Origin: Vermamoeba vermiformis | Taxonomy: Eukaryota | Direction of reading: 5' to 3' | DNA length: 64,000 nucleotides | Assembly (NCBI GenBank): GCA_045837725.1 | Contig: JBEWZL010000044.1 | Location: 124,001 to 188,000 of the forward strand | Shown here: positions 1 through 51,848 of the stretch, piece by piece | How positions within the stretch are numbered: the stretch's first letter is position 1 | Layout of the letters: every line of letters starts with the position of its first letter | The notes under the pieces: model-generated | Seen by the model: the letters and a program-made list of their open reading frames with translations, nothing else | The model's database searches: none | What the model was told of the DNA's origin: nothing | Position numbers and translations under genes: made by a program

Positions 1-2619
1 AGTAGCCCAGCAACGAGATCAACCACTTGCCTAATGTATTGTACGTTAGTACCACACGTGTCAATAGTTAGAGCGTTGCACAACTTACCAGGGTCGTAGT
101 GCATCCATCTCAAGCCATTTCTGTAGTCATAAGGGAACTCGTGATGGAAGTTGTGATAGCCTTCACCGAATGTGAACAACGAGACAATGTAGCTGTCACG
201 AGGAGTGCGTTGATCGCTGTACGTGAAATCGCCCCACCAGTGAGCCAAACTGTTGATGAAGAAAGTAGCGTGTTGAATGAAAACAGCCTTAGCAAAGCCA
301 CCAATGAAGAGACCGCCGAGCCAGTCACCCCAGCCGAGGCCAGCAATTAAAGTAGGCAAAACAATGCCCAATCCGAGAGCGAAGTAAGGGTAGTACTTGT
401 GTTGGAAGGCTATAAGTTACATCGTTAGAAAAAGTTTTGATATCTTGGGTAATGTAAGAAGCTAGGACTTACTCAAAATAGGATCGGCTAACAAGTCGCT
501 AATGTCGACCTCAGCTTCAGTGTAGTACTCAGGACCCCACGATTCACGCTTCCAAATCAACCAGCCCATGTGCGAGTACCAGAATCCACGCTTAGCGTTG
601 TACGGGTCCTTGTTTGTGTCGGTGTAACGGTGGTGAGCACGGTGATCGCGGCACCACGAGATAACGGAGCCTTCAAAAGTTGAGGCACCAGCCAACATCA
701 AGGGAATCTTGGCGATGCTCTTGACGTCGTAGGAACGATGAGACCACAAGCGGTGATAGCCCGAAGTAATACCAATGCCACCAATGTAGTACAAGATGAA
801 GCCGAGCAACAAAGTCTTGGCGTGAACTTCACACACGAAGAAACCGATGAAGGCCAAGAAGATAGAGCCGAACAACCAAGCAGTGACGAACCAATCAACC
901 TTCTCTGCGAGGGACTTGACACTAAGGCCAGTGTCGTCATTGGAGAAAATGAACTTGGTCAATGAAGTTTCTTGGAGTTGCTACGTTTGTGCGTTAGATC
1001 CGGCCATTAAAAAACTTGAATTGCGCAACTTACCTTATCAAACTTCTCTTGCAAGTGCTTGTATGCTTTCTTAATGTTGTAGTTGGGTACGGCGATGCTG
1101 TCGACAATCATGTAGTTGAAGTTGTCGGACAAGAGCTCGACCCACTTGGGAAACTTGACGGCAAAAGTGACGGAGATTTCGTTCTTGAGCTGTTCTTTGG
1201 TCTTTTGCACGGTCTCTTTGTACTCCTCGTAACGCTCAGAGGCCAACTTGAGCAAGGCAACGTGAGGTAACTGATGGGCCTTTTGGAACGAGCTGGCCCA
1301 GAAGTGATAGACCAACCACGGCATTAAGTAGTACTTGACGAGACTAAGTAATGTGTTAGTAATTGACATTATAAAATGAAGCTTAGAATCATCAAAAACC
1401 GGATCTTGATCTCCATCCGTAAGGAAAAAACTTACCCCCACCAGCCCAAGTTTAGAGCCATCAATGGGAAGAAGATGCAAACAAACGCGTAAATAAGGAT
1501 CATATTCACCATTGCTCGCTTCTCTAAGTTAATGTACGGAGTGACTTGCGCCTTGATCCATTGCCAAGGCGAAGCCACGAACCAGAAAGGAGACGATAAA
1601 AGTCCTATAAATATGCTTATTAGTAATGTACTCGACAAGTACTAAGTGAAGTACATACTTGAATTGTTATAATATTTCTGCCAGGATTGGAAAGGAGTCA
1701 TTAAAGGCAGCATGCACAACGTGCCAATAACGTCGTTTAAGCGCTTATTTTCAACAAAAGCGCCTTTACTGCACGCGTAAGAAACTGTGAGCAGCTATAT
1801 AATAAGGTTAGAGATTGCTAATTATTGTAATTAGATTGCGCATCCATTAATAGTCCGAATCCAAAAACTTTAAATTATTTGTAAGCCAGCAAATTCGAAT
1901 TTGCATTTGCATACGCTAAAATTGAGGTAATCGAAGATGCAATAATTCATCTGCGATTGATTTTCCGTTCATGAAAACAAGAAAAAACTTTGAAGATCCG
2001 GCCGAGTTTTGACGGAAAATAAATTATAAGATTATGATGCCCGAAAGTTTTTGGACAAAGGTACAAGCATAATTAAAGGCATGCAATGTGCATAAAAATT
2101 GTGAGTTGGATCAAGGCAAGCAAGGTATTTGTGTTTCGCGCACAAACTTGCTTTTAACTTGAGCGAAATGGATATTTGTAATTAAACAAGAATCGATTAT
2201 GAAAATTTCAATAAGCTGGGAAATCTGAAAGTTCTGATTCGGATTACGATCTGAAAGTCATTGTACTTTACACTTACTCCTGTAATAGCTGTGCCCAAGA
2301 ACATCCATCCAATAGGTAGTAAGTACCAAGGAGTGTAGGCCAGAATGACTACGCCGAGGGTTACAAACGTGATCGTCTTGACGAGCGAGAAGATGGCCTT
2401 CTTTGTGCTCGTTTGAAACACCTAAAAATGATCATAATAAGAATCGGAGCAATAGAGATCGAGGTTGAAAAGGTCATGATTAACAAAGCGAGCCTAAGTA
2501 GGCACTAGTTTGGATTTAGTTGTACAACTACAGCTCCGATGCCAAGTTGATTGCGCGATACGTACCTCTTTCGGCAATAGATCTGCCAGCTCGTTCATAG
2601 ATGTCGGGAACGAGTTCAT
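1..2619 (-). CDS. Fatty acid desaturase fusion: N-terminal degenerate delta-12/omega-6-like domain plus intact delta-9 acyl-CoA desaturase (spliced; 3' end runs off the window)
   Basis: C-terminal half has HRLWSH, HRAHH and GEGYHNFHH boxes. N-terminal half resembles DesA-type desaturases (PWYLLPIGWMFLGTAITG, LMPWLVYHFW, FPKWVELL). Joined in frame by intron 981-1033; ATG at 2619. Confidence 0.9.
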
Positions 2620-6236: not shown

Positions 6237-8801
6237 TCAACTTTGATCTTGTTGCAGTTTCGTCAATAACGTCAATACCCAATGATAAGTATTGGTTCGG
6301 CTATTTCCATCGTCAAATGTTTTAAGTGTTTGTACGTTCTTCCAGGCAGCTTCAGGATCAAGAATCGCTTGGGCCATGAAAATGAATCCCTTCCAAGTCT
6401 CCTCAAGAGGCGGGTCTTTTCTCGTCAAAGTTTTTTCCAAAATAGGAAATTCGTATTTGATCCATTCAGGCTCGAGTAGCTGACGAGTTACTGGCGTGAA
6501 AGGTAACATTTGGATGCAGTGAATGAACTCCACATTAGCTGAAAACAAGTGGTCAGCGTGGGTAAAAAAATCACGATGTTGCGACATACCTCCAAACCAC
6601 GTGGCATAATCGACCTTTGAAGACCATAAAACCCCGACTACGGAGTTTTTGGCAAATACTGGATCGTAGATATCAAAGTTCTCTGGGTACATGTGCCAAT
6701 ACTTTTGCGACGATCTGATCTCCGTCGCGAGAAGCACTCTGCCAAGATTTGATGCGAATTCGTCACCGACAGCCAAGCCCCACAGATGCACCGCATAATA
6801 GGCATTAACTGCTTCAGAAGTCGATTCTTGGTTCTTGTCATCTACAACAGAAAATTAGATCTAGGGACTGAAATGAAATTTCACGTACCTCCAAACTCGA
6901 ACAGTCCTGAAGCCCAAGAGTGACCCAAGTACCAGTCTTTGTGTCTAGTGACAGGGAAGTAGTTATCAGCGTGCGAAGGGTTGGCAATATCACGGATCAG
7001 ATCCAAGACGTAATCGCTGTACTTTGATCCCCATTCTTTGTCTTCTTTAGCGATCACCGCTGCAGCATAGATCCAATATCCGTAATGGAAATCTGACCAA
7101 TCAAATCGTTAGCACGAGTTTGACACGTGTCAAAGTTCAAGTGACACTTACGGTGATCGTTGTACCAGCCTTGACCGAACTCGTTTCCGGAGTTTTTGAT
7201 GCCCTCCGTAGAAACAATGCCACCCCACGTCGAATCGTAGATCAAGCTGTCGTTGCATTGCCCTTCCAGACGAGGTGTCAGGACCTTCTTCATCGACTCG
7301 CGGATCTCTTTCGCTGTAGTGTTGTCGCCAATTTGATCGGCAATTAAAGCCAGTCGGCCCATTGCTGCGACTTCTTTGCCGAAGAAATACGTGTCTTGAG
7401 CTTTAGGCTGCATATTTTTGTCTTCTTTCAACACGGTTTGCAAGATCTGCACAGCTTGATCTGAAAATTGAGTTTTTTCAAACCATCGGACTTTAGTCAA
7501 TTCTTCTTGTAAAATCCATTCGTCGCCAACAACGCCTGATTACTATATTAGGAAATTTAGTTTTTGGTGAGATTTTGACGTACCTGTCATTTTGCCCTTG
7601 ATTGTCTCGTAAGAATTTTTCATGATGAAATTTTTAGGCTTGCCGAGGCTGTCTTTGTGATGAGGCAAAGACATCATTAAAAGATCAATAGCAGCACGTT
7701 TTTCAACGAGCCATTTGAACGAGATTTGCGCAATATCACCGACAACTTCGTAGCTAATCTTGCTGCCAACAGGAACGGCACCGCTGTGCAGCTGCAAATT
7801 GGTCGCGTCTTCCATTGACAGAAGCAACGCAGCTCTATGATATTTTGTGGTTAGTATGAGCTTGCCGGTCATAGTAAAATAACGTGTGATTTAAGCGTAC
7901 CGCATGAGGCCATTGTATCGCTGAGTGGCTTCAAGTCGATTGGTCGTAACGTTGAAAGTTGTTTGGCCGTCCAAAAGATACAACATCCAAGTCTTGCCGT
8001 TGTTCATTATCACTTCAAATTGTGATCCACTCACGGTACACGGCACTGGCGAGTTGTTCACTGAAAGAATGGCGTGCACAGTGTCGAGCAAGGGAAACTC
8101 GGAGTTTTGATAGAGTACTGTAACATAAGGACTTCCATAGGCAATAGGAAAGGTCATTACAGGTTGCTTTGAAGCTGATAATAAATTGAATTATTAAGAG
8201 ATCAGTACAAATGTCAAAGTGTCAAAAACGTCGAATTGAATTTCCGGTTCATGAACAAAGTCAAACAAGGAATGCGTACCTCTATCGATATATTGCATAG
8301 TGACAGTCAAAGGGTCATAATCATGTAAAATTCTGTCGCATTCAATAGCTTTGACTTTGAACGATAAATCATGAACGAAACTCGTGAGAACGAACTTGTC
8401 CGTGGCAGATCTGTCTCAGAAGTTAATTTAAGCCATAATAATTATTCAATTATTACCTGTTAGGATATCCAAATTCAAATCCGTTGGCTGCTGCTTTCAT
8501 ATAATAAGGCAAAGGCATGATCGGATTTTCACCTTTGCCTAGGACAAGATCTGTGAGCCATTGGTTCGTGGGAAATGGCGCTTGTACTTTGCCCCATAAT
8601 CTATAATAAATTAGTGAATATTTACCACCAAACTAATTTGTTGGAATGACGATCTTGAAAAGCGTGTCAGAGCTCGCTCGATTATATTATTAATTAATTT
8701 ATTACTTACGGAGATGGCTTTAGAGGGTGCTTATCTGTGGCATTGAATAGAGGAAGCGCACCAGACTTGAAAGTTTGTTCTGAAAAACCTCGATCGGTCA
8801 T
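6237..8801 (-). CDS. Endo-1,3-beta-glucanase, glycoside hydrolase family 81 (spliced)
   Basis: GSPYVT, YETIKGKM, DTYFFGK, YNDHHFHYGY (across an intron), QESTSEAVN, EFIHCIQMLPFTP and FDDGNSRTN motifs. Confidence 0.92.
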
Positions 8802-9303: not shown

Positions 9304-12300
9304 TTATTCGGGATCCTCGAAACAAATATCCTTGTGCTGCATCGTCTTCCAGTCGTCCACTTGACATTCTCTGCTGCAATAATAAGCCACGCACTTGCTA
9401 CACTTCTTCAGCTTGACGTCTGTGTCCGGAACACCACAGTACCAACAGACATTAGTGTATGGACGGTCCTGCAAAATGATCGCAGTCATCGAGTCAACGC
9501 ACATGCGCGTGCTGCCAATACCGCCGTGGATGCGCGGATTGAATATAGTAATCTTATCGCCGACCTTCAATTGCGCAGCGTAAATGCATGTGAGCATAAT
9601 ACACTCGCCTAAACGGTCTCTAATGACGGTCCAAGTCATGCAACCCGTCGTAGGCCGTGTAATGATCGTAGCGTGCAAATAATGATTGGTGTATTGGAAG
9701 TCCTCGGTAAAGTCAATATTCCTAATGAAGAGCTCTTCGGTGCATTTCTCCGATAAGTCCGAGGTCTTGCCAAACACGGTCCTAACATCGTTAGGGATAC
9801 TTTCCAATAGTTCACGGACAAATATCGCTCGTTGATTGATGACCAATGGCTTGCCGTTAGTTCCAAACCAGTCATTTTTATCTTCGTAAAGCTCTTTGTA
9901 CTTCTTCGCTATGCTTGGTACGCTTAAAAATGTTACTGTATTAGCTCACAGTAACATAAAATCACTCAAAATGAACGAAATTTCACAGATTAATATCATT
10001 TTGTGCTAGCAACGCAATGACGAATAAAAAATGAAAAAAGAGTCGCCCAGATCTGAAGAAAAAATTTGGTCACTTACGTCACGATCTCGGCCGGAGGTGT
10101 CCAACCAGGCACAGTAGCCATTCGTTTGTCGAGTTTACGTCTCATGCCACGCCATTGTGACCCTTCGGTCAAGAACGCAAACTCTTGTTTCTCGGCCTCC
10201 AACAAACTTGCGTAAAACTTTAGCGCTGCATCCCAATTACTCGCTTTGATCGCACAAAATGCTGCACAAATGCAAACTATTTGAAAAATAAAATAGTTAG
10301 TTAAAAAAATTTCGGCGACTATCTAAAATTTTCTTAAAAAGTTAAATTCGGATCTCGTAATTTTTTTCATTATTGTCTTATTTGGACTTACTATCGACGG
10401 CTTCTACATCCTCCAATGGCAAAATGGTTAATAAATCCTCGTAAATTTCGACAGCTTCTTTGTACTTCTGATGTGCGAGCATGATGTGACCCTTGGTATT
10501 CGCAACTTCAATAACTTCTGTGAGGTTCTCCGGGTTCATTAGTTTTTCCGCTTTTAAAATTGCCGGCATTGAATCTTCATATTTCCCGTGCCAAGAAAGT
10601 TGTTGTGCGTAATTCTGCCACATCAATGCCGACTCGGGGAATTTTTGCACGCCTCGTTTAAGCCACTTTAACTGCTCAGAATCGACGTACTTGCAAATGA
10701 TTGCATCCTCCGTCTCTTCATGCTGCAAAGCTGTATTGATCAGCTGTGTCGTCATCTCGATGTGTGCTGGGAGCAAAAACACGAGGTACGTGCAGTACTT
10801 GAGGGCAGCAGCGCGCATTTGAACGAACTCCAAACTATCTTCCAATGTACATTTTTTCTCTTTGTAGCATCGTTTGACGATTTCATGAGAGTACAACGAG
10901 TATTTGAGTGCCTGTTTCAGGTATTTTCCATATTCGGACGTTGAATTACTAATTCGCGGAATCATATCTTGCACTTCATCGACCAACCCATTTTTCTTTT
11001 GCGTTTTTGCTTGTGCGGTCAAATCGAGCTGGATGACATCTGTCAAAAAAACAAATCAGCTATAATCACTCTAATAGACCCGATTTTCATCAAAATAGTC
11101 ATGTAAGGTTTCAGTTGAAAATTAGCTCATTAATCTTAATAGATAGAAAAATTGCTACGAACATAATTTAGAACTATTAAATTAATTGAGGAAGGTTTAA
11201 TTAGTACAGTCCGTATTCTACGTACCAGTGTCGCTAGTAATTTGACTACGCAGCTCGCGCAGTGCGGCCAGATGGTCACCAGCCACGTGATAGCCTTTGT
11301 CCACTGCACGTTGCAGCCACTTCTCGGCCTCATCGTAGTTCCGTTCCACGGCCTTTCCTTTGATGTAACACTCCGCGACTTCTTCCATGGCTGACACGAG
11401 GCCTCCCATGGCTGCGGCCAATAACAGTTTGAAGCCCTTGGTCTTGTCTTTGACCACGTGAGTGCCGCGTAGGTACCACGAACCTAATTTCCACTGCGCC
11501 ATGTCCATGCCGTTGTCTGATGCTTTTGTCACCCATCGCAGGCCTGTTGCAACGTCTGGTCTTTTTCCCACACCGTCAATGAGACACACGCCGTAGTGGT
11601 ATTGAGCGCAACACACCGCTGCAGTAAAATCGATTAGACTCGTGTAAATGAACAAAAATTAGCTTAATAAACAACATATCCGCATAATACTGCTTTTGGA
11701 GCTAAAACAGGACAAACTGGATGCGGATCGGAATTTAAATGTAAAGATAAACTCAGTTTAAAACGACTTACGCCAATTAGTAGTGCCATCAGGTTTGCGG
11801 TCAGGCAAGGCAATTACTTTTTCCATCCACTCAATGCCTTGGGCCAGATCTTGTTTCATTCCACGACCGTCCATGCAACATTCCGTCTATGAGCACATTT
11901 AGTAATAGTCATATGTATATCGAGAGATGATATTACCATGCACATCATGCCCTCAAGACTGCCTTTATCGGCTGCTCTCCTGAAGTATGTAACAGCTTTT
12001 TCAAACTGCGGTAGACCTCGATGACCGCTCTCGTACATTCGACCGCGCAGGTAATCTGCATAGCCTGTGCGATTGTCTGCTCGAGCTATGACTCGTTCTA
12101 TATTCTTTTCATTTACTGGCTCGCCTTCCTCAGTCTAGAAAGAATTAATAAATCGGATCAGGAAATGTAAATTGAATTTGTGGTTCTTATATGATTAGTA
12201 TTCTTACGAATAGTCCTAGCTCTTCAAATACGGGCGCGTGATGCGTTAATGGATTATCTGCTCCAATTTTCGTTGACTCGTACTTGGCTAAAGATCTGTA

Positions 12301-13819
12301 GTTGAACAACTCTTCGTTGTTAGGATCATGCGAAAGAGCCAATTCCAAAGCTATATTAAATATAGGCGTTAATAATTCTATGCCAAACACCAGTTTTTCA
12401 AGTAAAATAATATTATTAAAAACGTTAAGAACAAGAACACATGGCAAATAATAATACCGAGGATAAAATTGCAAAGATTAAGAAGGCGATTGAAGAGGCT
12501 AACAATGATATTCCTCCAAGGGATTATAGAGATAACTATTTGAAGATAGATCCGATCGAGGAAGAAGAACTTAGGAAGCAAGCCGAAGCGTTCAGAAAAC
12601 GAATTAAACCGAGAACCAATCCAAATGTAGTCTCAATTGCAATACTGGTAATTATTTTAGGCGTTGTAATCGCAAGAATATTTTTGTAAATTAATAAAAA
12701 TAATTGTATAAATTTTCGCTTGGCTTAGCTTTTAAAAATAATTGTATAGAATATTTCGACTTACTTTTGACAGCCTTTCCATATCGTTTTTGCAATAAAT
12801 AAACTTGTCCTTTGACCGAGTAGTAAACGGCCAGCGAATCCGGTTGAGCCTTATGAGCAGCCTTTACGTCGGATAAAATGCGTGCTAATATCTGCTCTTC
12901 ATCTTCTTCGCTCAATGTTTGATCTCGTACATTTTGGCGGTATTGGAGTAGCTTCAGTTGGGCTTGCGATCTGCCGAAGAGTAAATTTCCTCGTTGTTCT
13001 TCGCTGGTACCGCGTTCTTGTAATGCTTTTCCAAATAAGGAAACTGCTTTAGAATACTGATGTGTATTCAACGCTTCTTCTGCGAGCCGTTGAAGATCTT
13101 CAAGCGATGCGGCGGATGCAGATTCGTTGAGAGACGCTGTAAATGAGCTCAAATCGTTCAGCTTATACTTCTCGATATCCACTTTCTTCTCGCCAAAATA
13201 AGTAAGAGCTGCGCGCAGTACTTTGAAATATTGGTCAAAAATATTCGGATCCAATTCGATCATGTCACGCGGTGCTGCATGCGCTAGACTATTACGAATA
13301 GTCTTAATGTTTCTAACATGCTCGTCTTCTCGTTGAGTCTTCTTATTATTTGGTACTCTTATACCATTTATAGCTGTAATTAGCGAGGATAAATCCCACG
13401 TAGATGCAGTGCCGGATCTGATCGTCTCTTGCTTTTCAATCGTGCATTGTGATAATGAATCGATTTTATCTACGTAATAATTGCCCATGCTAGGATTGTC
13501 TTGCCATTCAAGGCCTGTTCGCTGCTTGAATCGCTCTTTGAATATTTTCAGCAGATGCCGCGAAGTAGCATTCAGCATATATTGAATACGGGCAGTTTCT
13601 CTGAGATAGAATAGGATTTATTATAATTTGACGTTTAATAATGAACTACCATCAAAAAACAGATTTGGATCTAGCCGTTATAATTTTCTTTATCGTTCAA
13701 AATCTGATTGATTATTGATCAAAATAATTTTCGATCATTTAGATCGTTAATATTCAACCAAGTTGGTTATTTGCCGAAGCTTGATCAACCTCGAATCTAA
13801 CTTACGTTCGTTGTTGCAT
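9304..13819 (-). CDS. Multidomain protein: HEPN-like (RNSLAH), TPR, Sel1-like repeats, TPR, C-terminal MYND zinc finger (spliced)
   Basis: WDLSSL...IRNSLAH at the N-terminus; TPR across intron 12351-12764; Sel1 repeats (AQWKLGSWYLRG, AEKWLQRAVDKG); CWYC...CSKC...YYCSRECQVDDW...HK..C. Exons are linked by canonical GT-AG introns; phases were checked for the 5' junctions. Confidence 0.8.
12441..12689 (+). CDS. 82-aa tail-anchored membrane protein nested antisense in an intron of the HEPN-TPR-Sel1-MYND gene
   Basis: Intact ATG-TAA ORF with a charged helical body and C-terminal hydrophobic segment VVSIAILVIILGVVIARIFL; AATAAA just after the stop; lies entirely within intron 12351-12764. Confidence 0.65.
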   Translation: MANNNTEDKIAKIKKAIEEANNDIPPRDYRDNYLKIDPIEEEELRKQAEAFRKRIKPRTNPNVVSIAILVIILGVVIARIFL

Positions 13820-14116
13820 CTTTTTTGAGTGTTATCCTTATATGGCAGGCATCTGTTATAATCACGACTGTTTGTTCTGTCGAGGACAACAGGAAAATAA
13901 GGAACAAAATCTTTTTATGTAGTTTATTACGTTGACCACGTATCTTGTAAAAATGAATGTATTTATATTGTTTATAGTTGCTATTGGATATTTTTTGTAT
14001 CGATTTCACCGCGATCCTCCAAGAATCAGAAAACTAGGAGGTAACTAACAAGATCTGTCCTTGAAGTCACTAAAATATTTTACTTTGCACTTATAATATT
14101 ATAATTATCGATTGTA

Positions 14117-16133
14117 ATGGTATTGCCGTCAAAGTGGCTGGAAACGCACGATATGCGGAAAAAAAATACTAATTTAATTTTTGCAAGGCAAATCCGCGCA
14201 GTTTTCAAATTGGGAAGGTCGTAACACGTGCTTAGTACGCAGTTATCATAAACCAACAAATAAAGAAGAAATCAAACAGATTCTGAAGGAAGCGTATGAA
14301 AAACATGAAAAAGTCCGCGTCGTTGGCGCAGGTAAGCGAATTAAACCAATTAAATAATTTTACTAAAACTACGTAATTAATAGTGATTATGAACGGCGCT
14401 TTTAATGCTTATCAGCCTAATAATTGAATTTTTGACAGGTCACTCATGGGGCGATAGTGTCATTACAAATGACCATTTAATATCGCTTGATAATATGAAA
14501 CGTGTCATATCAATCGATCATGCTAATTTGCTTGTCACTGTAGAAGTAAGAAATTCGATCTAGCACAAATTTCCATTTCAGATCGTGACCGATTATTTTC
14601 ATAGGGCGGCATTAGATTATACGAGCTCACGGAAATTTTAGAACGCGAAGGCCTTAGTCTTTATAATATAGGTACTTTATTACCGCAAAACACGTGCAAG
14701 TAAATTTTAATATTCTTGAAGGCACTATCAAAGAACAAAGTTTAGCCGGCGTAGTTTCAACTGCAACTCACGTAATACCCAAAATTAGATATTGCCATAA
14801 AAGGAATACGAGTGTTAATTTATTTCTTAGGGCACGGGTCAACAAATTGGCAGTTTTAGCTCATCCTTGCGAGGAATTGAATTTGTGACGCTCGATGAGA
14901 ACGGTGAACCGAAAATAATTCAGTGCTCTAACAGCGATAATACCGAAATATTCAAATTTGGACGCTGCTGCGTCGGAAGTAAGTCCATAAAAATTACTGA
15001 ACTACGTCTGAACTAGATCCACCGCAACTAAATTTTGCTATTTATACAAAGATATAGAATATATATTATGGATTAAGTACTAATTAGACTATGTAGCTTT
15101 TGGCGTTATCACTGAACTGACGATTCAAGTCAAAAAGTTGTATCGAGTGCGACAAGAACAAGAAGTGATTCCAATCGAAACTGTGTATAATAATTTCTAC
15201 GATTGGATCAAAAAAGAAGAGCGCATTAAGTTTTGGTGGTGTAAGTTAGCATTAAGTCATTATAGATACGCTAACTAAACTTTTTCACAGTTGTTCCGTG
15301 CAAGTTTGCGTTGACTTCGCGGTACTACGAAACAAACGATGAAATTTCACCGCTCAAAGTGCGCGTGATGCATTACTTTAGAGAAGATTTTGCGCATTAT
15401 ATTCAAGAGTGGGCTTTGTACTTGATCTCGAAAGTAAGTTTGTCGCTTTAGACAAATAAGGAAATTGCCTAATATAGTTACCACGATATAGTTCCCTTCA
15501 CTGAACGAGAAAATTATCACTGCGGCTGTTGGCAACCTTCCCAAGTTTGTTTTTACGGACAAAATGGTGAATGGATTGAACTCTGTCATCCGCATGAAGT
15601 ACGTCACTTTTTCCAAATATGGAAATATATTTATCGATCAGCAAGACCTAATTATTGTTGTACCCGACAGGCATTGCGAATTAGAGTATATTGTGGACTC
15701 GTCAAAGTCATTGGAGATTATGAAAAAGATCGAGAAAATGATCGGGGACCACAAGATCTGTTTGAACATGCCAGTCGAAATCAGATTCACTAAGAGCGAT
15801 GATATTCCGCTTAGTCCTATGTACGGACGAGATAGCACGTGCTTTACGTTCTTAGTTTACAATTTGGAAGATCATCGCGTGATCTACTTTGAGCAACTTG
15901 ACAAGATTTTTGCCGAGTATGGTGGAAGACCTCATTGGGGCAAATGGTTTGGAATGACCTGCAAAGAACTGCAAACGCTTTATCCGGAGTGGAATAATTT
16001 CTTGGCAGTACGGTAAGTGGTTTTTAGATGCGATCCGTAACTCGATCTAACAAATTATTCGTGATGCAGTGAGCGAATGGACCCGCACCAGATCTTTGTT
16101 AATGACTGGGTCAGAAGGAATTTTGGCTTGTAA
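14117..16133 (+). CDS. L-gulonolactone oxidase / D-arabinono-1,4-lactone oxidase-like FAD oxidoreductase (spliced; start approximate)
   Basis: FSNW, VRVVGAGHS, QSLAGVVSTATHG, PVEIRF...LSP, GGRPHWGK and DP..IF.N motifs. Confidence 0.9.
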
Positions 16134-23633: not shown

Positions 23634-25508
23634 ATGAGTCATTCAGACAAAGATAAGGTCAGTAAGCACGAACAAAAGACTTAAATCCGGATTTCAAACC
23701 GATTTTTTATTTGCAGCTAACTACTTACTTTTACGATTTAAATAACATATGTATATTTTTAACTTAACACCTTAAATTTATTAGGCATTACCAACGAAGC
23801 GAAAGAGCGTGAAACAAAATTGGAAAGATTTTATTAATAAGCACGGTGATAAAATCCCTGCATCGTGGAAAGACGGATCAAATAGGATCACAATAGAGAC
23901 GGGAGAAGAGCCATTTAATTTATTGCAAGAAGGATTGAAAGCTCGCTCGATAGTCCACGACAAATTTTTGATCGACTTTGCGTTACTTAAAAAGCCACAC
24001 GTATTAGCGGAAATATGCAAAATATTTAAATTATTAGAGGAATATAATAGATATTATGCACTGCAATTAAACATGACGGAGGTGATAGAAAACAACGAAC
24101 AAACCAGGACTTTTTTCAAACTGTTGACTTCAAAAAATTGCAGAATTAACAGCTTAGCAACAAACGTTGCATTATCAGCAGAATCAGCGTTAATATTCAA
24201 TAAGTTATTGGAACAAAACACCATTACAGATCTGGATTTGACAATTCCCACACCTGCATCCACGGGGGGAATTATTGCACACTGTATTGAAGGGCTCAAG
24301 GGACTAGCGAACAATAGAACTATTCAAACGTTGCAATTATTTGGACTCGGTGATGACCGCGAGATCTCAAAAATTCTCGAAAAAAATCATTCAATTACGG
24401 ATCTAGCGCTCGGATCACATGGTCTACATAATTTTAGTACAGAAGAGCATTTAGTACCTGCGTTAGCAAAAATGGGATCATTACAATCAATTTTTTGTTT
24501 TTTTGGTCTAAGACAACCGAAAAACTACGGATCTCTTTGTGCCGTCCTCAAAGGCAACAAATACTTGGAAAAACTGGTTTTTACTGAAATGTCATATGAA
24601 CCTACACTATCTAGCTCCGATTGTACGGCATTGGCAGCCGCAATAATGGCACATCCGTCGTTACAAAAATTAATTTTGCCGGGCATATCAATGTGTCCAT
24701 TAATTAAGGCAATTTCTGGCAGTAAGACTATAACTACACTAGATAAGGTACCTATCGAACAAATTATTACTGATGAAGAACTACAAAAATCGATACTTTC
24801 AATGAAGTAAGTTCCGGATGTACCTTAAAAAAAATTCTTTACTAATGTTATTTTACTCATAGATCGCTTCGAAAATTAACAATCGTTAGAGAAAATCATT
24901 ACGAAACAGAAGCGGAAAAAAAATCGCATCAATTTGATCTTTCAAACTTGGTACATCCGTCGTCTTCGATCCGAATCTTAGTGTTTGATAGGCTCATAGA
25001 CTACGAACCAACAGCGAAATTTATTGAAGCATTGGGCAATAGGACATCAGTTGAACAAATACGGATTAAAGAGCAGTTTCGATATTGGCCAGAAATTTGT
25101 CAAGCCAGCACAACGAATCCGTTTTTGATCGTTCAATGCAATCCAGTATGGGACCATCGTTATGATCAAATTAAATCTATCACAACGAAAAGAAGAAGTA
25201 TGATGATGGAGTTTAGAAGAGCAATCTCTTGCTTAAATATTCTCAGAATAATTCATTTGTCGACGGATCGAGGATTCTTTGCAACAATTCCAAACGAGAT
25301 ATTAATATTAATCCTACAAAAATTATCTATGGATCGAGACTTGGCACGAATCGATCGGAGCCTATTAACTCTTCAAGAAAATCAAATCCAAAAATTGCAA
25401 CAGATCGCAATCGAAAGATCTGTCCTGAAAGAACGAAATACGATAAAACGGCTACAATCACTATGGATAGACTATGGGATTAAAGAGATTTGTACACATG
25501 AAAAATAA
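23634..25508 (+). CDS. RNI-like leucine-rich repeat protein with C-terminal F-box-like motif (paralog 1)
   Basis: L.xN.TITxLxL repeats; C-terminal FFATIPNEILILILQKL; two introns. Confidence 0.75.
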
Positions 25509-30755: not shown

Positions 30756-32292
30756 TTATCCAAGAAGTGTCATTATAGCGAGAGTACAGAACATTACAAA
30801 CAAAGGGACAACGGTACCGGTGCCATGGGATACAACCGATGCATGAGGCTGTGCTACAGGTACTGACACAGTGCTCGGCGACGCAGATCTGTCACACAAT
30901 TTGGTCGCGGTGCACGAGACGTCCTTGGCACCATCGCGAGTGAATCGGAGAGCAAGTTCTATTCCAGCTTCTGTCGCTTTAATGCCATCAAGGTGCACTT
31001 CAACAGCACCACAGTCTGACAGTGTATTGATGGTGTAATAGTCCGTAATAGTGATGTTAGTGTCACAAAAAGAGGGTGACACTTGATCGTGACACGTGAC
31101 ATTTGTTGGCTCAATGAAGCACCCCTCGGCTCTGTACAAATAGCAACTAAGTTCCGATAATGTGCATTGATAAGCCAGAACAGTATTGTCGACTGGAGCA
31201 ATGGCAAATCCAAAACTACTGACTTCCGAACTTGCAGATTCGGCGGATCGAATTCTTCTTGTGTAGATCCAGCTTCCCGATTCATCTCTGTCGTACCAGT
31301 ACAATGAACCTGTTTGATTGTCATTAATAAGATCGACTGGAGCTGCCAGGACGAATGCACTATTGGACATCATCTCTGCTGCCAACGGAAAATAGCCCTG
31401 CGAATTCATCTGCAATTCTGTCGTGTAAAGTGTTTGAGTTAGAGTCCATTGTCCATTGGTATTATTTTTGGTATAAATTCTGGCTGCTTCGATTCTAAGC
31501 GACGTCGATAGCACGCTAGAAACGATTATGGTGTCAAATCCGTTGTATAAAACGTGTCTTATGGCACTGTCGAGGATAGGTTCCGTTGGAATATTAGTCA
31601 CTAGTGACCAAGATCTGTTGGCGTGTCGTTCGTAAACAAACGTTGAGTTGGTAGTGAATCCGGTAAAGTAATTTGGTCCAACTTTCATTAGAATAGGTCT
31701 GAAATCGACTATATTGGCTGGTACTAAAGTGGTATATTGCTGAGGAACCTCTTCTTGAATTAACGTCCAATTCTGGCCGTCAAACTCGTACGTTCGGATT
31801 GCATCTGGCCACAAAGCAACAAAAGTGTCGTCAGGAAATATCCAGCCAGTTGTATTTGGGAAATAAAAAGAGTAAGCTTTGGTAATAAGCCGTGACGCGC
31901 TGAGTTGGAAGAGATCAACGTATGGGTTGGCCACAACTGCGATCCAATTACCATTTGTCGATAAATTAGGGATTTGCTTCTTAGAATCAGTCACCAAAGC
32001 GGTCGTCTGTCTTGAATCTACTACATTATAGTTATTATCGGGGCCTCTTTTGTACACGAGTGCTAAGCTGTTTGAAAAATTGAAGGCGATTGCAATATCT
32101 TCGTAAGCGACTGCTCGAATGATTAAGAAGTTTCCTGAATTAATTGCTGAATCATTTGTTACTTTATAAGCTGGAATTTGCTGTTATCAGAGCGCTCGTT
32201 AATTATTTTGAAAAAGATCAGACACATCTTGTAATTACCTGGACTGCCTGAACGACAACGCAAAGGGCGAAAATAATAAATAATTTTAACAT
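30756..32292 (-). CDS. Secreted/GPI-anchored beta-propeller (FG-GAP-like) surface protein, copy 1
   Basis: Signal peptide MLKLFIIFALCVVVQA; W..TQ/FG.A repeats; Cys-rich NVTCHDQ domain; Ser/Pro linker and hydrophobic tail. Confidence 0.75.
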
Positions 32293-32449: not shown

Positions 32450-33992
32450 TTATAATACTGCTATTAGCATTGTAAGAAAGAGAATCATAAGTGCTGACTG
32501 CAAGATCTGACTTCCGGATGTGTTATCTTTTGGTGGTGATTGCGGAGCCGAGACTGCCATGGGAGCAATAGGAGCTGCATTATCGCAAAGTGCGTTCACT
32601 GTGCACGTGACATCAGTTGAGCCAGAACGAGTGAATGTCAAGTCTAAGTAATAGCCTTGTGCATCGGATCTGATGACGTTATTGGCCTGAACTGACACTT
32701 CTCCGCACTTGGCAGGTGTGTTGATAGTATACAAGCTGTTAATATCGACGTCGAAGGATGAGCACGATGACAAGCGTTGATCATGACACGTGACATTTGT
32801 CGCCTCTTCGTAACACAACTCCGCGGTGTGGATGAAGCACGGAAACGAGTCTATGCCAGGAAGACATTCGACAGAGATTAAGCCGTTGTTGATTAGCGCC
32901 ACGGCCTGTCCAAAGCGTCCATCGTTGACAGCTGAAGTAACGCGTCTGGTGACATTCCAAGTGCCTGTCTCATCACGGTGCAGCCACCAAACTGAACCAC
33001 TGGTGTGGCCTTTAATAATATCTGGTACATAGCCATCGTTTGGTGCTGTGACGATGTAGTTGTCGCTGTCAACTTGAACAATTTCATCGCCAAAGTATCC
33101 GTAGCCAGTGATGCCTATTGACGCAGCTGCAATGCGCTGTGTTCGTTCCCAGCCAACTGCTCCACGTGTGTAAATAGCAACGTATCCACGAGGCTGTGAA
33201 ACACTGTCTTCAAAACTGGATATGATCAACGTATTGTTGCCGTCCCATAATAAATGCGTAAGTGGACTTTGAACATCTGCGTCAAATACAATAGGGGCAT
33301 CAAATACGGACCACGACTTGTCTTCGTTACGGTAAAAGATCTGTCCGCCAGTTGAGTACTGAATGCTGATGTAATTGAGATGTTTACGCAGGAAGAGAGT
33401 ATTACCACCTGCATTCGACTTTATCAATGTGTAGTTGTCGGGAATATCCTTGCGAGCTAACGACCAGTCGGTGCCGTTGAACTCGTAAGTGCAGATTGCG
33501 TCTTGAGTAAAAGCAACATAAGAACCGTCCTCGAATATCCAGCCACCAAATGGATTAGTGAAGTATAATGTAAATGTCTTATTAATAAATGTGGCATCGT
33601 CGTTGAGTTCGAAGATTTCGTGAGCCAAATCTGCTGCGCGAGCTGCCCATCTGCCGTTTGTTGAAACAATGATGCTCGTAGTGGACATTGTTGAATGCGG
33701 CCGCGAATCTACTCTATGATAGAACCCTGAGGCACCGCGTTTAAGCGACACGATTTCGTCTGTTGTCGAATCTAGCATTATGGCCAGATCGTCATGTGCT
33801 TCCAATGGGAAAGGAAGGGTTCTTGCGCTACCATACAAATAATAAGATTGCACAAAATCGGAAGAGCGCATTGCAGGAATATTCTACGATTTTTGAAATT
33901 AGTTACAAAATTTAGTTTGCGCTTGAACATACCGATAATGCGTCTGTAACGACGAAACAACACAAACAAAAAGTTATCAATTGCTTCAACAT
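32450..33992 (-). CDS. Secreted/GPI-anchored beta-propeller (FG-GAP-like) surface protein, copy 2
   Basis: Signal peptide MLKQLITFCLCCFVVTDA; GYFGDEI and GRFGQAVA repeats; shares STNG.W, YEF.G..W and NVTCHDQ...YTINT with copy 1; hydrophobic tail. Confidence 0.75.
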
Positions 33993-47922: not shown

Positions 47923-49782
47923 TTATTTTGCATGCGTACAAATCTCTTTGATACCATAGTCTAGCCATAGTAATTGTAACCGTTTTATCGTATTCTGTTC
48001 TTTTAGGGCAGATCTGTCGATTGCGATCCGTTGCAATTTTTGGATCTGATTTTCTTGAAGAGTTGAGTTATGATCGTTTCGTTCTAAGTCTCGATCTGTA
48101 TCAACTAATAATTTTTGCAGTATTAATTCTAATATCTCGTTTGGAATTGTTGCAAAGAATCCTCGATCTGTCGACGAATGAATTATTCTGAGAATATTTA
48201 AGCAAGATATTGCTCTTCTAAACTCCATCATCATTACTCCTCTTTTGATCTTAATATCTCTAATTCGCGCAGAGCGTACGTCCCATGATGGATTGCATTG
48301 AACGATCAAAAACGGATTCGTTGTGCTGACTTGACAAATTTCTGGCCAATAATGAAACTGCCCTTTAATCCGTATTCGTTCAACTGATGTCCTATTGTCT
48401 AATGCTTCAATAAATTTCGTTGTTGGTTTATAGGACCGGCTAGTAGCAAACACCAAGATTCGGATCGAAGACGATGGATGTACTAAGTTTGAAAGATCAA
48501 ATTGATGCAATTTTTTTCCCTCGCATTGTATATGATGAGTGGAAACAAGTGTTAATTTTCGAAGCGATCTATGAGTAAAATAAGATTAGTAAAGTATTTT
48601 TTTAAGGTACATCCGGAACTTACTTCATTGAAAGTATTGATTTTTGCAGTTCTTCATCATACTTAAGTTCTTTGATGGGTACGTCTAATGCTGTTATGGT
48701 TTTAATGCCTGAAATCGACTTAATTAATGGACACATTGATACTCCAGGCAAAATTAATTTTTGTAACGACGGATGTGCCATTATTGCGGCTGCCAATGAC
48801 GTACAATCGGAGCTAGACATAATAATATCTTGTTTTTCGATAAAAACCAGTTTTTCCAAGTATTTGTTGGCATTAATAACGTCACAAAGGATCTTCTTAT
48901 CGATCGGTTGTTTTAGGCCAAAATTGAATTTGATTGATTTCAATGACCCCATTTTGACTATCGCAGGTATTAAATACTCTTCTATGTTAAATGCATAATA
49001 ACCACGTGATCCAAGCTCGAGGGCAGTAATTGAATGATTTTTTTCGAGAATTTCTGAGATCTTGCGTTCACCATCGAGTCCAAATAGTTGCAACTTTTGA
49101 ATGGTTGTATTGTTCGCTAGTCCTCTGAGACCTTCAACACATTGTGCAATAATTCCTGTTGATGAACGTCCGGGAATTGTCAAATCCAGATCTGCGATGG
49201 AGGTGTTTTTTTCCAACAATTTATGGAATATTGACGCTGATTCTGCTAAAAATCCAACGTTTGTTACTAAGCTGTTAATTTTACATTTTTTAGAAGCCAA
49301 CAGTTTGAAAAAAGTCTGGTTTGGTCGTTGTTTTCCATCACATCCGTGGCACTTAATTGCAGCGCATAATATCTATTATATTCCTCTAATAATTTAAATA
49401 TTTTGCATATTTCTGCTAATACGTGTGGAATTTTAACTACTGCAAAGCTGATCAAAAATTTGTCGTGGACTATTGAGCGAGTTTTCAATCCTTCTTGCAA
49501 TAAATTAAATGGCTCTTCTCCCGTCTCTATAGTTATTCTATTTGATCCGTCTTTCCACGATGCAGTGATTTTATCTCCGTGCTTCTTCACAAAATCTTCC
49601 CAATTTTGTTTTACGCTCTGTCGCTTAATTCGTAATGCCTAATAAATTTAATTTATTAATTTAAAATACAGGTAAGCTATTTCAATCGTAATAGTAAGCT
49701 GCATTTTAAAAAATTGGGTTGAAATCCGGATTTAAGTCTTTTGTTCGTGCTTACTGACCGTATCTTCGTCTGAATGACTCAT
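47923..49782 (-). pseudogene. LRR protein paralog 2 with 1-nt frameshift (pseudogene or sequencing error)
   Basis: Close inverted copy of 23634-25508; ACCAGGACT in paralog 1 reads ACCAGACT here (about 49316), splitting the ORF. Confidence 0.7.
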
Positions 49783-49917: not shown

Positions 49918-51582
49918 TTATTTGCGCAGACAAATGCTGCGAATATCATCTTCAAGCCATAATAATTGCAATCGTTTCCTAGCATCTGGATCTCTTCCGA
50001 GTTTCGATCTGTCACTTGCGATCTGGACCAACTTTTTCAGGTGCCTATCGTCGTTCACGAATTGAAAAAAGGCACCTGGATTATGAAACGCACTTTTCCA
50101 TATTAGGACTAATATCTCGTTTGGAATTGTTGCAAAGATTCCTCGATCTGCTGGCAAGTAAATAGTTCTGAGAATGTTCAAGCAATTGATTACTTGTTTG
50201 AATGCTCTTATTAATATCATTCTAGGTGTGAGTATATCAAAGCGTTCATCGTCGTGCTGGTGAAAGAAATTCGTAGCAAATCGAACTTCTACGAACGGAT
50301 TCGCTCTTGTTGGGCGAGCAATACGGGGCCAATAAGCAACCGATTTTTTTAGTTTGATAAGCTGAACTGATGTATTATTCTCTAATGTATTAATGAACGA
50401 GTCTGTAGGGTTATATCTGCATCTGCTACAGAAAACTAGGGTTTGGATCGGAGATGCCGAGTGCACCAAGTTTGATAGATCCAATTCTGAGACACTTCCT
50501 TGGTTTCCTCTAGCAGCAAATATCAATTTTCGAAGCGATCTATAAGAAAAATAACATCAGTAAGAATTTTGTTAAGATACATCCGGAACTTACTTCATCG
50601 AAAGTATCGATTTTTGTAGTTCTTCATCCACCATAATTTGCTTGACAGGTACTTCTAGTGCTGTTATAGCCGTACTATCACATATTGCTTTGATTAACGG
50701 ACACATTGATACTCCATGTGATAAGCCGGGCAAACTTAATTGTTGTAACGCCGGATGTGCCATTAGCGTCATCGCCAATAACTTTGTTTCGTCTGTTGAT
50801 AAGTTAAATTCCTCTCTGTTATCAAATAAATAGAATTTTTTCAGGTTTTTGTTGCCTTTGATCGCTTCACTAATAGATCCGACGCTTTTAGGCGCCTCAA
50901 CGGAATCTAACTTGATCGACTTTAAAGAACCCATTGTAGCCAAACCAAGCAATATATCGTCTGAATTTAAATTTCTGCCGCTTAGATCTATTGAAGTGAT
51001 TGTATGATTTGCTGCAAGAATTTCTGAAATTACGGATTCGTTCTCAATCCCCGACAATTTCAATCGCTGAATAGTCTTATTTTTCTTTATGCCAGCCAGC
51101 CATTTTATTGACTGTTCCATAGTTTTGATTTGCGCGTGTTCATCGGTTGTCAGATTCAGATCCGTAATCGTTGTGTTTTTTTTCAGGAATTTGCTGAACA
51201 TCGATTTGGCCGTCGTGGATGATATATATACGTCGGTTGTAAATGAATTAATTTTGCATTTGTTGGACCGTAGCATTTTGAAAAAAGATTTTGTTCTGTC
51301 GTTACACTCCATTACATCCGGGGCACTAAGCTCTAAAGAATAATATCTGTCATGATTTTCTATTGCTTGTAATATTGCAAGTATTTTCGGCGAGGTAACC
51401 AACTGATCAATCACCGAAAATTTGATCCTAAATCCGTCTTTCGGTATTTCGTTTTCTTGCAACCATTCTATTAATAAATCTAAAGACTCATTGCCAGCAG
51501 TAATTGTAATCGTTGGTTCGTATTTCCATGACGGTGGAATCTGTTTGTGCTTCTTCAAGAAATCATCCCAGCCCTGTTTCAT
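49918..51582 (-). CDS. LRR protein paralog 3 (more divergent; start approximate)
   Basis: Shares MAHP.LQ.L.LPG, DEELQKSILSMK, the intron donor context and IFATIPNEIL with paralogs 1 and 2. Confidence 0.75.
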
Positions 51583-51848
51583 CCATTTTAATAAATATTC
51601 ACGTATTTGTAAAATATTATTTTGTTAACTTCCTTATTTTAACAAAAAATAACTGATCGGGAATTGATTTGGGCTCTACAACGGATTTGTTCTTAGCCTA
51701 TTTACCTCTCCTGTTCCGCTCATTTTACATTATTACAAGCTCAAAATATGGTGTTGTGCATTTCGTGTGGTGCGGAAAAAATAACGAACAACAAACAAAA
51801 GATTTTGGTGCTGGCCGGTTGAAATTAATTCGTTTATCAAGTTTATTT

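Follow-up and report, generated by a model that had tools for sequence, protein, structure and literature searches.

Tail-anchored proteins of the Sec61-beta, cytochrome b5, and SNARE type are the membrane proteins with which the product of a small open reading frame (ORF) in the window (the whole 64,000-nt stretch of DNA that was analysed) can best be compared. The ORF lies on the plus strand, inside an intron of a larger gene read from the minus strand. Like these proteins, its 82-residue product has a predicted cytosolic N-terminal part without a signal peptide and one hydrophobic helix that ends at the C-terminus; unlike them, it is related in sequence to none of the Pfam families and to none of the proteins in the searched libraries, and its membrane insertion is a prediction.

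The position of the ORF invites comparison with nested genes, which are reported to make up about 6–10% of Drosophila genes, with many of them being short and young (PMC3814207, PMC3786989, PMC5174743). Nesting on the opposite strand is described by the same three sources as common in animals and as usually having no functional tie to the host. The ORF agrees with the nested genes of Drosophila and other animals in being short, probably intronless, contained in one host intron, and placed on the opposite strand, with coding sequences that do not overlap, and it also looks young or lineage restricted. It departs from them in that (i) its host intron has only 414 nt, which is far below the usual length; (ii) a promoter and a 5′ UTR would have to fit into the 90 nt upstream of the ORF, and a 3′ end into the 75 nt downstream; and (iii) it is known here from sequence alone.

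A HEPN-like domain in the host product further recalls the prokaryotic HEPN toxin-antitoxin pairs, namely HEPN-MNT and RnlA-RnlB, the latter being named in Table 1 of PMC3710099. Both arrangements place a small gene beside one for a HEPN-domain protein. In our locus, however, the partner would be a membrane microprotein rather than a nucleotidyltransferase or an RnlB-like protein, the two are not co-transcribed, the ORF running antisense within an intron, and the pairing is positional alone.

The reading that we favor, with moderate confidence, is that the ORF is a lineage-restricted (orphan), single-exon, plus-strand nested gene for a tail-anchored microprotein of 82 residues. Such a gene would be driven by a short promoter of its own within the 90 nt between the host acceptor and the ATG, and its transcript would receive a poly(A) tail downstream of the AATAAA at 12693. 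The product would then enter a membrane post-translationally through its very hydrophobic C-terminal helix. Very hydrophobic tail-anchor helices point to the endoplasmic reticulum (ER) over the mitochondrial outer membrane, and the character of this terminal helix suggests ER insertion; the ER membrane would be the most likely target, with the charged two-helix N-terminal part facing the cytosol. The tie to the host would be the positional one of a nested gene, extending at most to transcriptional interference, and not that of a dedicated toxin-antidote pair. If real, the ORF would be one more unannotated orphan microprotein gene, with an unusually tight nesting that confines a transcription unit to 414 nt, and it would make a useful test case, as annotation pipelines usually miss intronic genes of fewer than 100 codons. 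By itself it would open no new mechanism, given that both opposite-strand nesting and microproteins with a tail anchor are familiar. The features of the locus are collected in Table 1.

Table 1. Positions in the window of the nested ORF, its flanking elements, and the modelled exons of the host gene
Feature	Position	Strand	Description
Nested ORF	12441..12689	+	82 aa, 249 nt with stop; in-frame TAA 12 nt before ATG; putative single-exon gene
C-terminal hydrophobic segment	12627..12686	+	Residues 63-82, VVSIAILVIILGVVIARIFL; predicted transmembrane helix (KD19 and AlphaFold2 helix 61-81)
AATAAA	12693..12698	+	Possible poly(A) signal, 4 nt past stop
TATA-like TATATTAAATATA	12352..12364	+	77-89 nt before ATG; candidate, judged by its letters; also complement of host acceptor tract
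Two exact 16-nt direct repeats	12695..12748		12695-12710 and 12733-12748, 38 nt apart, in ORF 3′ flank
Host intron 2	12351..12764	-	414 nt, GTAAGT...TATAG, phase 1; contains nested ORF; placed by sequence logic
Host exon 1	13806..13819	-	ATG at 13819; 14 nt; donor GTAAGT; joins exon 2 in frame; gene model only
Host exon 2	12765..13600	-	HEPN-like N-domain, then TPRs (TPR_2, TPR_1); X1 contigs over 12878-13188
Host exon 3	12208..12350	-	Completes TPR; no in-frame ATG; X1 contig joins 12208 to 12134
Host exon 4	11937..12134	-	Sel1 repeat (E 1.9e-5); both flanking introns (73, 50 nt) spliced in X1 contigs
Host exon 5	11772..11886	-	Joint 11886/11937 in X1
Host exon 6	11218..11618	-	Three Sel1 repeats (E 1e-21); stop TAG at 11218-11220

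The nested reading frame and its predicted product

The ORF lies wholly within the intron at 12351-12764, and it would remain intronic with an acceptor at 12378. Its residues 1-60 comprise 14 Lys and Arg and 13 Asp and Glu, and their KD19 maximum of -0.86 indicates neither a signal peptide nor any other hydrophobic segment. Over the whole ORF, the KD19 maximum is 2.96 at residues 63-81, and residues 63-82 form its sole hydrophobic segment. An AlphaFold2 single-sequence model of the 82 residues (mean pLDDT 76.8) places helices at residues 4-22, 38-55, and 61-81. The KD19 profile, the model, and the sequence thus bear out the preliminary description of the ORF as encoding, on the strand opposite to the host, a charged helical body with a C-terminal transmembrane helix, followed by AATAAA. 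The three modelled helices carried no family signal, and a C precedes the start at position -3.

The ORF had also been called an intact gene. This goes further than the findings: its plus-strand frame is open, has a start, a stop, and an AATAAA, and is coding-like, but a homologue was not found in any search. Neither a word-indexed search with the 82 residues nor a comparison with viral contigs returned a homologue, and the window contains no paralogue of the ORF. A phmmer search of 1.84 billion representatives gave four matches with an E no greater than 1e-3; three were inspected and proved to be repeat or low-complexity matches, and the fourth offered no separate matched stretch. The best Pfam match of the 82 residues had an E of 0.017, and the best score in the ESM Atlas was 0.89, with a recognition of 2128, which is below the 2300 reached by 91 in 100 known-family proteins. 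A metagenome match, which had been seeded on the chosen word EEEELRKQ, was rejected as a homologous locus: its 18 identities over 58 positions reflect a charged helix inside a 275-residue protein that has no transmembrane tail.

As judged by these comparisons, a widely conserved family for the ORF is ruled out. With regard to close relatives, the blanks are weak, because the 278-residue exon 2 of the host is equally matchless (no relative among longer lengths at E up to 1e-5, among near lengths at E up to 0.01, or in metagenome contigs) and because three ORFs from this locus, searched for by exact match, are all absent from the protein collection.

The host gene and its second intron

Spliceosomal introns are present in the window, which identifies it as eukaryotic DNA. 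Its other genes encode a fatty-acid desaturase, a GH81 glucanase, a MYND-TPR protein, an ALO-type lactone oxidase, a PP2A-like phosphatase, an amino-acid permease, LRR and filamin proteins, and a subtilase, and 12 of the 24 long ORFs that were scanned have no Pfam family. We modelled the host as a minus-strand gene of six exons encoding 568 residues, with a HEPN-like N-domain, TPRs, and Sel1 repeats, and with introns of 205, 414, 73, 50, and 153 nt, each of which is of the GT..AG type. A search of solved structures gave, as its best result, weak TPR matches to phosphatase 5 (E 0.17 or worse). From the host stop at 11218 to the first ATG of the next gene, at 10965, there are about 250 nt; with genes this closely packed, a transcription unit of 414 nt is conceivable.

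Sequencing reads were examined in five runs that share small proportions of sampled words (0.08-0.12) and in three raw RNA runs (X6, X7, and X8), the latter three being included for their identical species label. In the public run X1, the contigs (97-100% identical to the window) lie over host exons only and skip exactly 12135-12207 and 11887-11936, showing that these two host introns are spliced. The X6, X7, and X8 runs gave 0, 1, and 0 reads, respectively, on 11850-13350, host exons included, which is too few to judge. Between 12293 and 12877, X1 contig depth is zero, so the 12764/12351 junction is without reads either way, and the sole sequence on this interval is one partial X7 read that is 90-95% alike.

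Intron 2 has its donor GT at 12764-12763 (GTAAGT) and its acceptor AG at 12352-12351 (TATAG), on the minus strand. The Pfam match of TPR_1 to the end of exon 2 extends as far as position 22 of the 34 in the profile and breaks off precisely at the donor, whether or not the read-through tail is included, so the next exon is needed to complete the repeat. Across the exon 2/exon 3 join, the product reads ...YGKAVK-T-LELALSHDPNNEEL, and the added T-LELALSHDPNN restores the A-x6-A-x4-P spacing that is usual for TPRs. Further, read-through past the donor reaches a stop after 24 codons, at 12691-12693, and exon 3, although it contains no in-frame ATG, appears in the X1 contigs as transcribed sequence joined to exon 4. 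Taken together, the repeat cut at the donor, the restored spacing, the short read-through, and the onward splicing of an exon without ATG make the intron at 12351-12764 very probably real. An alternative in-frame acceptor at 12378, giving a 387-nt intron, would add nine residues and break the TPR. The preliminary description had proposed this donor and acceptor, joined in phase to give one TPR, and all of its coordinates proved correct.

Its remark that the intron is unusually long also holds: at 414 nt, intron 2 is the longest of the five in the host and at least twice the length of the next one (205 nt). Among candidate introns of the window, the mode is near 50-65 nt, as taken from a crude scan whose long tail is unreliable, and for this reason the mode alone was used. 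Without the ORF, the intron would measure 165 nt. That the intron owes its length to a snoRNA or another known RNA within it was considered and rejected, with Rfam giving 0 matches on 11000-14200 at E up to 1.

Coding statistics and competing readings

The length of the ORF was evaluated in first-order Markov simulations of 414-nt sequences, with 4000 sequences per composition. An ATG-initiated ORF of at least 82 residues arose in 26 of the 4000 sequences with the composition of the intron; the count was 3 for the composition of its flanks and 34 for that of the remaining host introns, corresponding to 0.1-0.9% per intron. The non-coding DNA of the window may come to 30 kb, or about 77 blocks of 414 nt; at 0.65% per block, we estimate that it would contain roughly 0.5 ORFs of such length by chance, and length alone therefore proves nothing.

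Codon usage was scored with a model for which the 24 longest ORFs in the window served as the training set. The nested ORF has a log-odds of 0.16 per codon, whereas the other five frames range from -0.10 to -0.65. This score ranks 12th among 249 stop-to-stop ORFs of 60-130 codons and lies at about the median of the training ORFs (0.042-0.225). Among random ORFs of at least 60 residues in three compositions, 0.16 was reached by 10 of 627, 1 of 263, and 0 of 319, that is, by 0-1.6%. The score is imperfect, as the stretch at 684-962 on the plus strand receives 0.248 though it is antisense to a fatty-acid-desaturase exon. The G+C content of the ORF is 0.353, compared with 0.224 in the 165 nt of intronic flanks, and by codon position it is 0.44, 0.29, and 0.34, compared with 0.45, 0.37, and 0.43 in the training ORFs, with the order 1>3>2 in both.

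A filter for the tail-anchor layout, requiring a hydrophilic N-terminal part and a single terminal hydrophobic helix and written after the ORF had been seen, passed 1 of 406 random ORFs in one set and 2 of 444 in another; the window has 95 ATG-initiated ORFs of 60-130 residues, and of these it passed the nested ORF alone. An AATAAA that starts no more than 30 nt downstream is found for 3.8% of plus-strand positions in the window, and its weight is modest because the local flanks are richer in A+T.

These figures bear directly on whether the ORF is an accident, that is, an open frame running through A+T-rich, purine-skewed DNA of a long intron that contains no gene. An accident would agree with the want of a homologue in any search and with RNA runs that offer no evidence of the ORF, as well as with the expectation of about half such an ORF in the window; moreover, some clearly spurious ORFs score high in codon usage, and the Atlas recognition is under that of most known families. 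Against this stand the rarity of the length in any one intron, a codon score that at most 1.6% of random ORFs attain, a tail-anchor layout passed by <0.5% of them, a G+C content that sets the ORF apart from its own flanks, and the coincidence of the extra intron length with the ORF; the homology blanks, for their part, count for little when a host exon of 278 residues is also matchless and the ORFs of this genome are absent from the protein collection. We therefore consider chance unlikely.

A proto-gene or relic, coding-like now or once but not a functioning gene, would have arisen de novo or be a piece left in the intron by a gene that was duplicated or mobile. Small membrane proteins are reported to emerge de novo from thymine-rich DNA in yeast (PMC7005711), and nested genes are said often to arise when short young duplicates insert into introns (PMC5174743). 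The ORF resembles the de novo membrane proteins of PMC7005711 in being a small orphan in A+T-rich, non-genic DNA with a T-rich transmembrane stretch, but in codon usage it does not fall behind the established genes of the window. An orphan with coding-like statistics fits such an origin, as does a transmembrane segment derived from a T-rich stretch, and a recent rearrangement of the locus is suggested by the 16 nt that recur, unaltered and in direct orientation, on the 3′ side of the ORF. On the other hand, the frame is intact with start, stop, and AATAAA, in codon usage it matches the median of the long ORFs in the window, a parent copy was found neither in the window nor in the databases, and no target-site duplication or terminal repeats surround the ORF. 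We regard a proto-gene or relic as quite doubtful. Insertion of a mobile element was rejected, since no repeats enclose the ORF and the window has no other copies of the intron.

It would be a different matter if the host were two genes, with a HEPN-TPR gene that finishes at the 12691 stop, another gene with the Sel1 repeats downstream of it, and the ORF in the spacer between them. This would be compatible with the zero contigs and reads spanning 12764/12351, where there is no depth, and with a read-through that yields a 24-codon tail and a stop. That tail fails to continue the repeat, however, which is cut precisely at a GTAAGT donor and regains its spacing through the join, and the frame of exon 3 has no ATG inside or upstream, although it is transcribed and joined to exon 4. 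Two genes are thus very improbable, and the nested, tail-anchored microprotein gene stays the preferred reading.

The HEPN-like host domain and a possible partnership

The host had been described as a HEPN-domain gene. HEPN domains are characterized by an Rx4-6H motif in which the Arg is followed by a polar residue (PMC3710099), and the N-terminal 165 residues of the host contain R107-N-S-L-A-H112 (RNSLAH) at 13296-13279, which is an Rx4H with the polar Asn after the Arg. Neighbours of the N-domain in the ESM Atlas (scores 0.90-0.94) are cnidarian and molluscan clusters with HEPN_DZIP3 and/or DUF4559, and include a HEPN_Swt1 cluster. In Pfam, DUF4559 (PF15112) matched the N-domain with an E of 7.5e-5 and 22.8 bits, which is under the cut-off of 27, and the HEPN_DZIP3 profile (PF18738) gave no match to the host at E up to 1. 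A single-sequence model of the N-domain is all-helical, and its pLDDT of 41.1 is too low for a fold search. The motif, the sub-threshold DUF4559 match, and the HEPN-type neighbours thus speak for the earlier label, whereas the missing HEPN_DZIP3 match does not; we consider it a reasonable label for a putative HEPN-domain host.

The preliminary description had further suggested, speculatively, that the microprotein is functionally coupled to this host as an antidote, membrane tether, or antisense regulator, making the locus a eukaryotic toxin-antidote unit. What speaks for such coupling is position only, namely antisense nesting in a gene with an intact Rx4H (RNSLAH) and HEPN-type neighbours, HEPN domains being known to act in conflict systems (PMC3710099). 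As a dedicated partner, the 82-residue protein might hold the putative RNase at the membrane or keep it inactive, and antisense nesting would ensure joint inheritance and regulation of the pair, which would form a toxin-antidote or immune-effector module of the animal type. Against this, a related locus in which a conserved pairing might be traced was found neither for the host, in the protein and metagenome searches, nor for the ORF, in the protein, viral, and metagenome searches, and the DZIP3-type row of Table 1 in PMC3710099, which gives fusions to TPR, RING, NACHT, Death, and other domains, has no small membrane partner among them. Opposite-strand nesting is, moreover, common and usually without a functional link, according to the nested-gene studies cited above (PMC3814207, PMC5174743, PMC3786989). 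Functional coupling to the host is accordingly extremely improbable, and we hold the role of a dedicated partner for the microprotein to be hardly credible.

Apart from the nested ORF, the host is of moderate interest itself. HEPN proteins of the DZIP3/hRUL138 type form, according to Table 1 of PMC3710099, an animal family that has undergone lineage-specific expansion and includes TPR fusions. The host resembles them in its Rx4H with Asn after the Arg, in its TPR fusion, and in having cnidarian and molluscan clusters as its nearest Atlas neighbours; it differs from them in giving no HEPN_DZIP3 match and in its C-terminal Sel1 array, which is absent from the fusion row of that table. As a DZIP3-like HEPN protein with TPRs and Sel1 repeats, it would belong to expansions that are thought to be active in animal immunity or genetic conflict. 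One of the Atlas clusters near the host N-domain has 38% HEPN_DZIP3 and 37% DUF4559 members, a lead toward an overlap between the two families.

Host expression and splicing

Across 11850-13350, contigs from X1, a public sequencing run, carry exons of the minus-strand HEPN-like host gene in spliced form. They depart from the window sequence at 7 listed positions, so the host gene is expressed in a close strain or relative. This locus was essentially absent from three RNA runs bearing the same species label. Use of the alternative acceptor in the host intron (Table) would add nine residues to the host protein and break the TPR.

Flank and coding signal of the nested frame

The putative poly(A) region may have been duplicated locally on a small scale, giving the exact repeat downstream of the plus-strand 82-aa ORF in this intron. 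Codon-based calls in the window are to be treated with caution, as illustrated by the desaturase-antisense frame, whose codon-usage score (log-odds per codon against a model from the window's 24 longest ORFs) is 0.248, above most real exons.

Table. Features of the window
Feature	Position	Strand	Remarks
93-codon frame	684-962	+	antisense to fatty-acid-desaturase exon
GH81 beta-1,3-glucanase gene	6240-8415	-	
Alternative in-frame acceptor, CATAG	12378		host gene; intron would be 387 nt
16-nt exact direct repeat, TAAAAATAATTGTATA	12695-12710, 12733-12748		ORF 3' flank; copies 38 nt apart
ALO-type lactone oxidase gene	14240-16013	+	
Two-exon-like gene family, three copies	23785-25505 (+), 47926-49638 (-), 49921-51624 (-)		translations clearly similar
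Two neighbouring long ORFs	30759-32183, 32453-33883	-	475 and 477 codons

Gene content of the window

One of the three two-exon-like copies is inverted in orientation, and a Pfam scan assigned no family among the members scanned. The two neighbouring long ORFs, neither of which was given a family by Pfam, may be tandem paralogues. Animal-type genes (filamin repeat, DZIP3-like HEPN) adjoin the GH81 and ALO-type genes, a mixture that may hint at lineage or at acquired genes.
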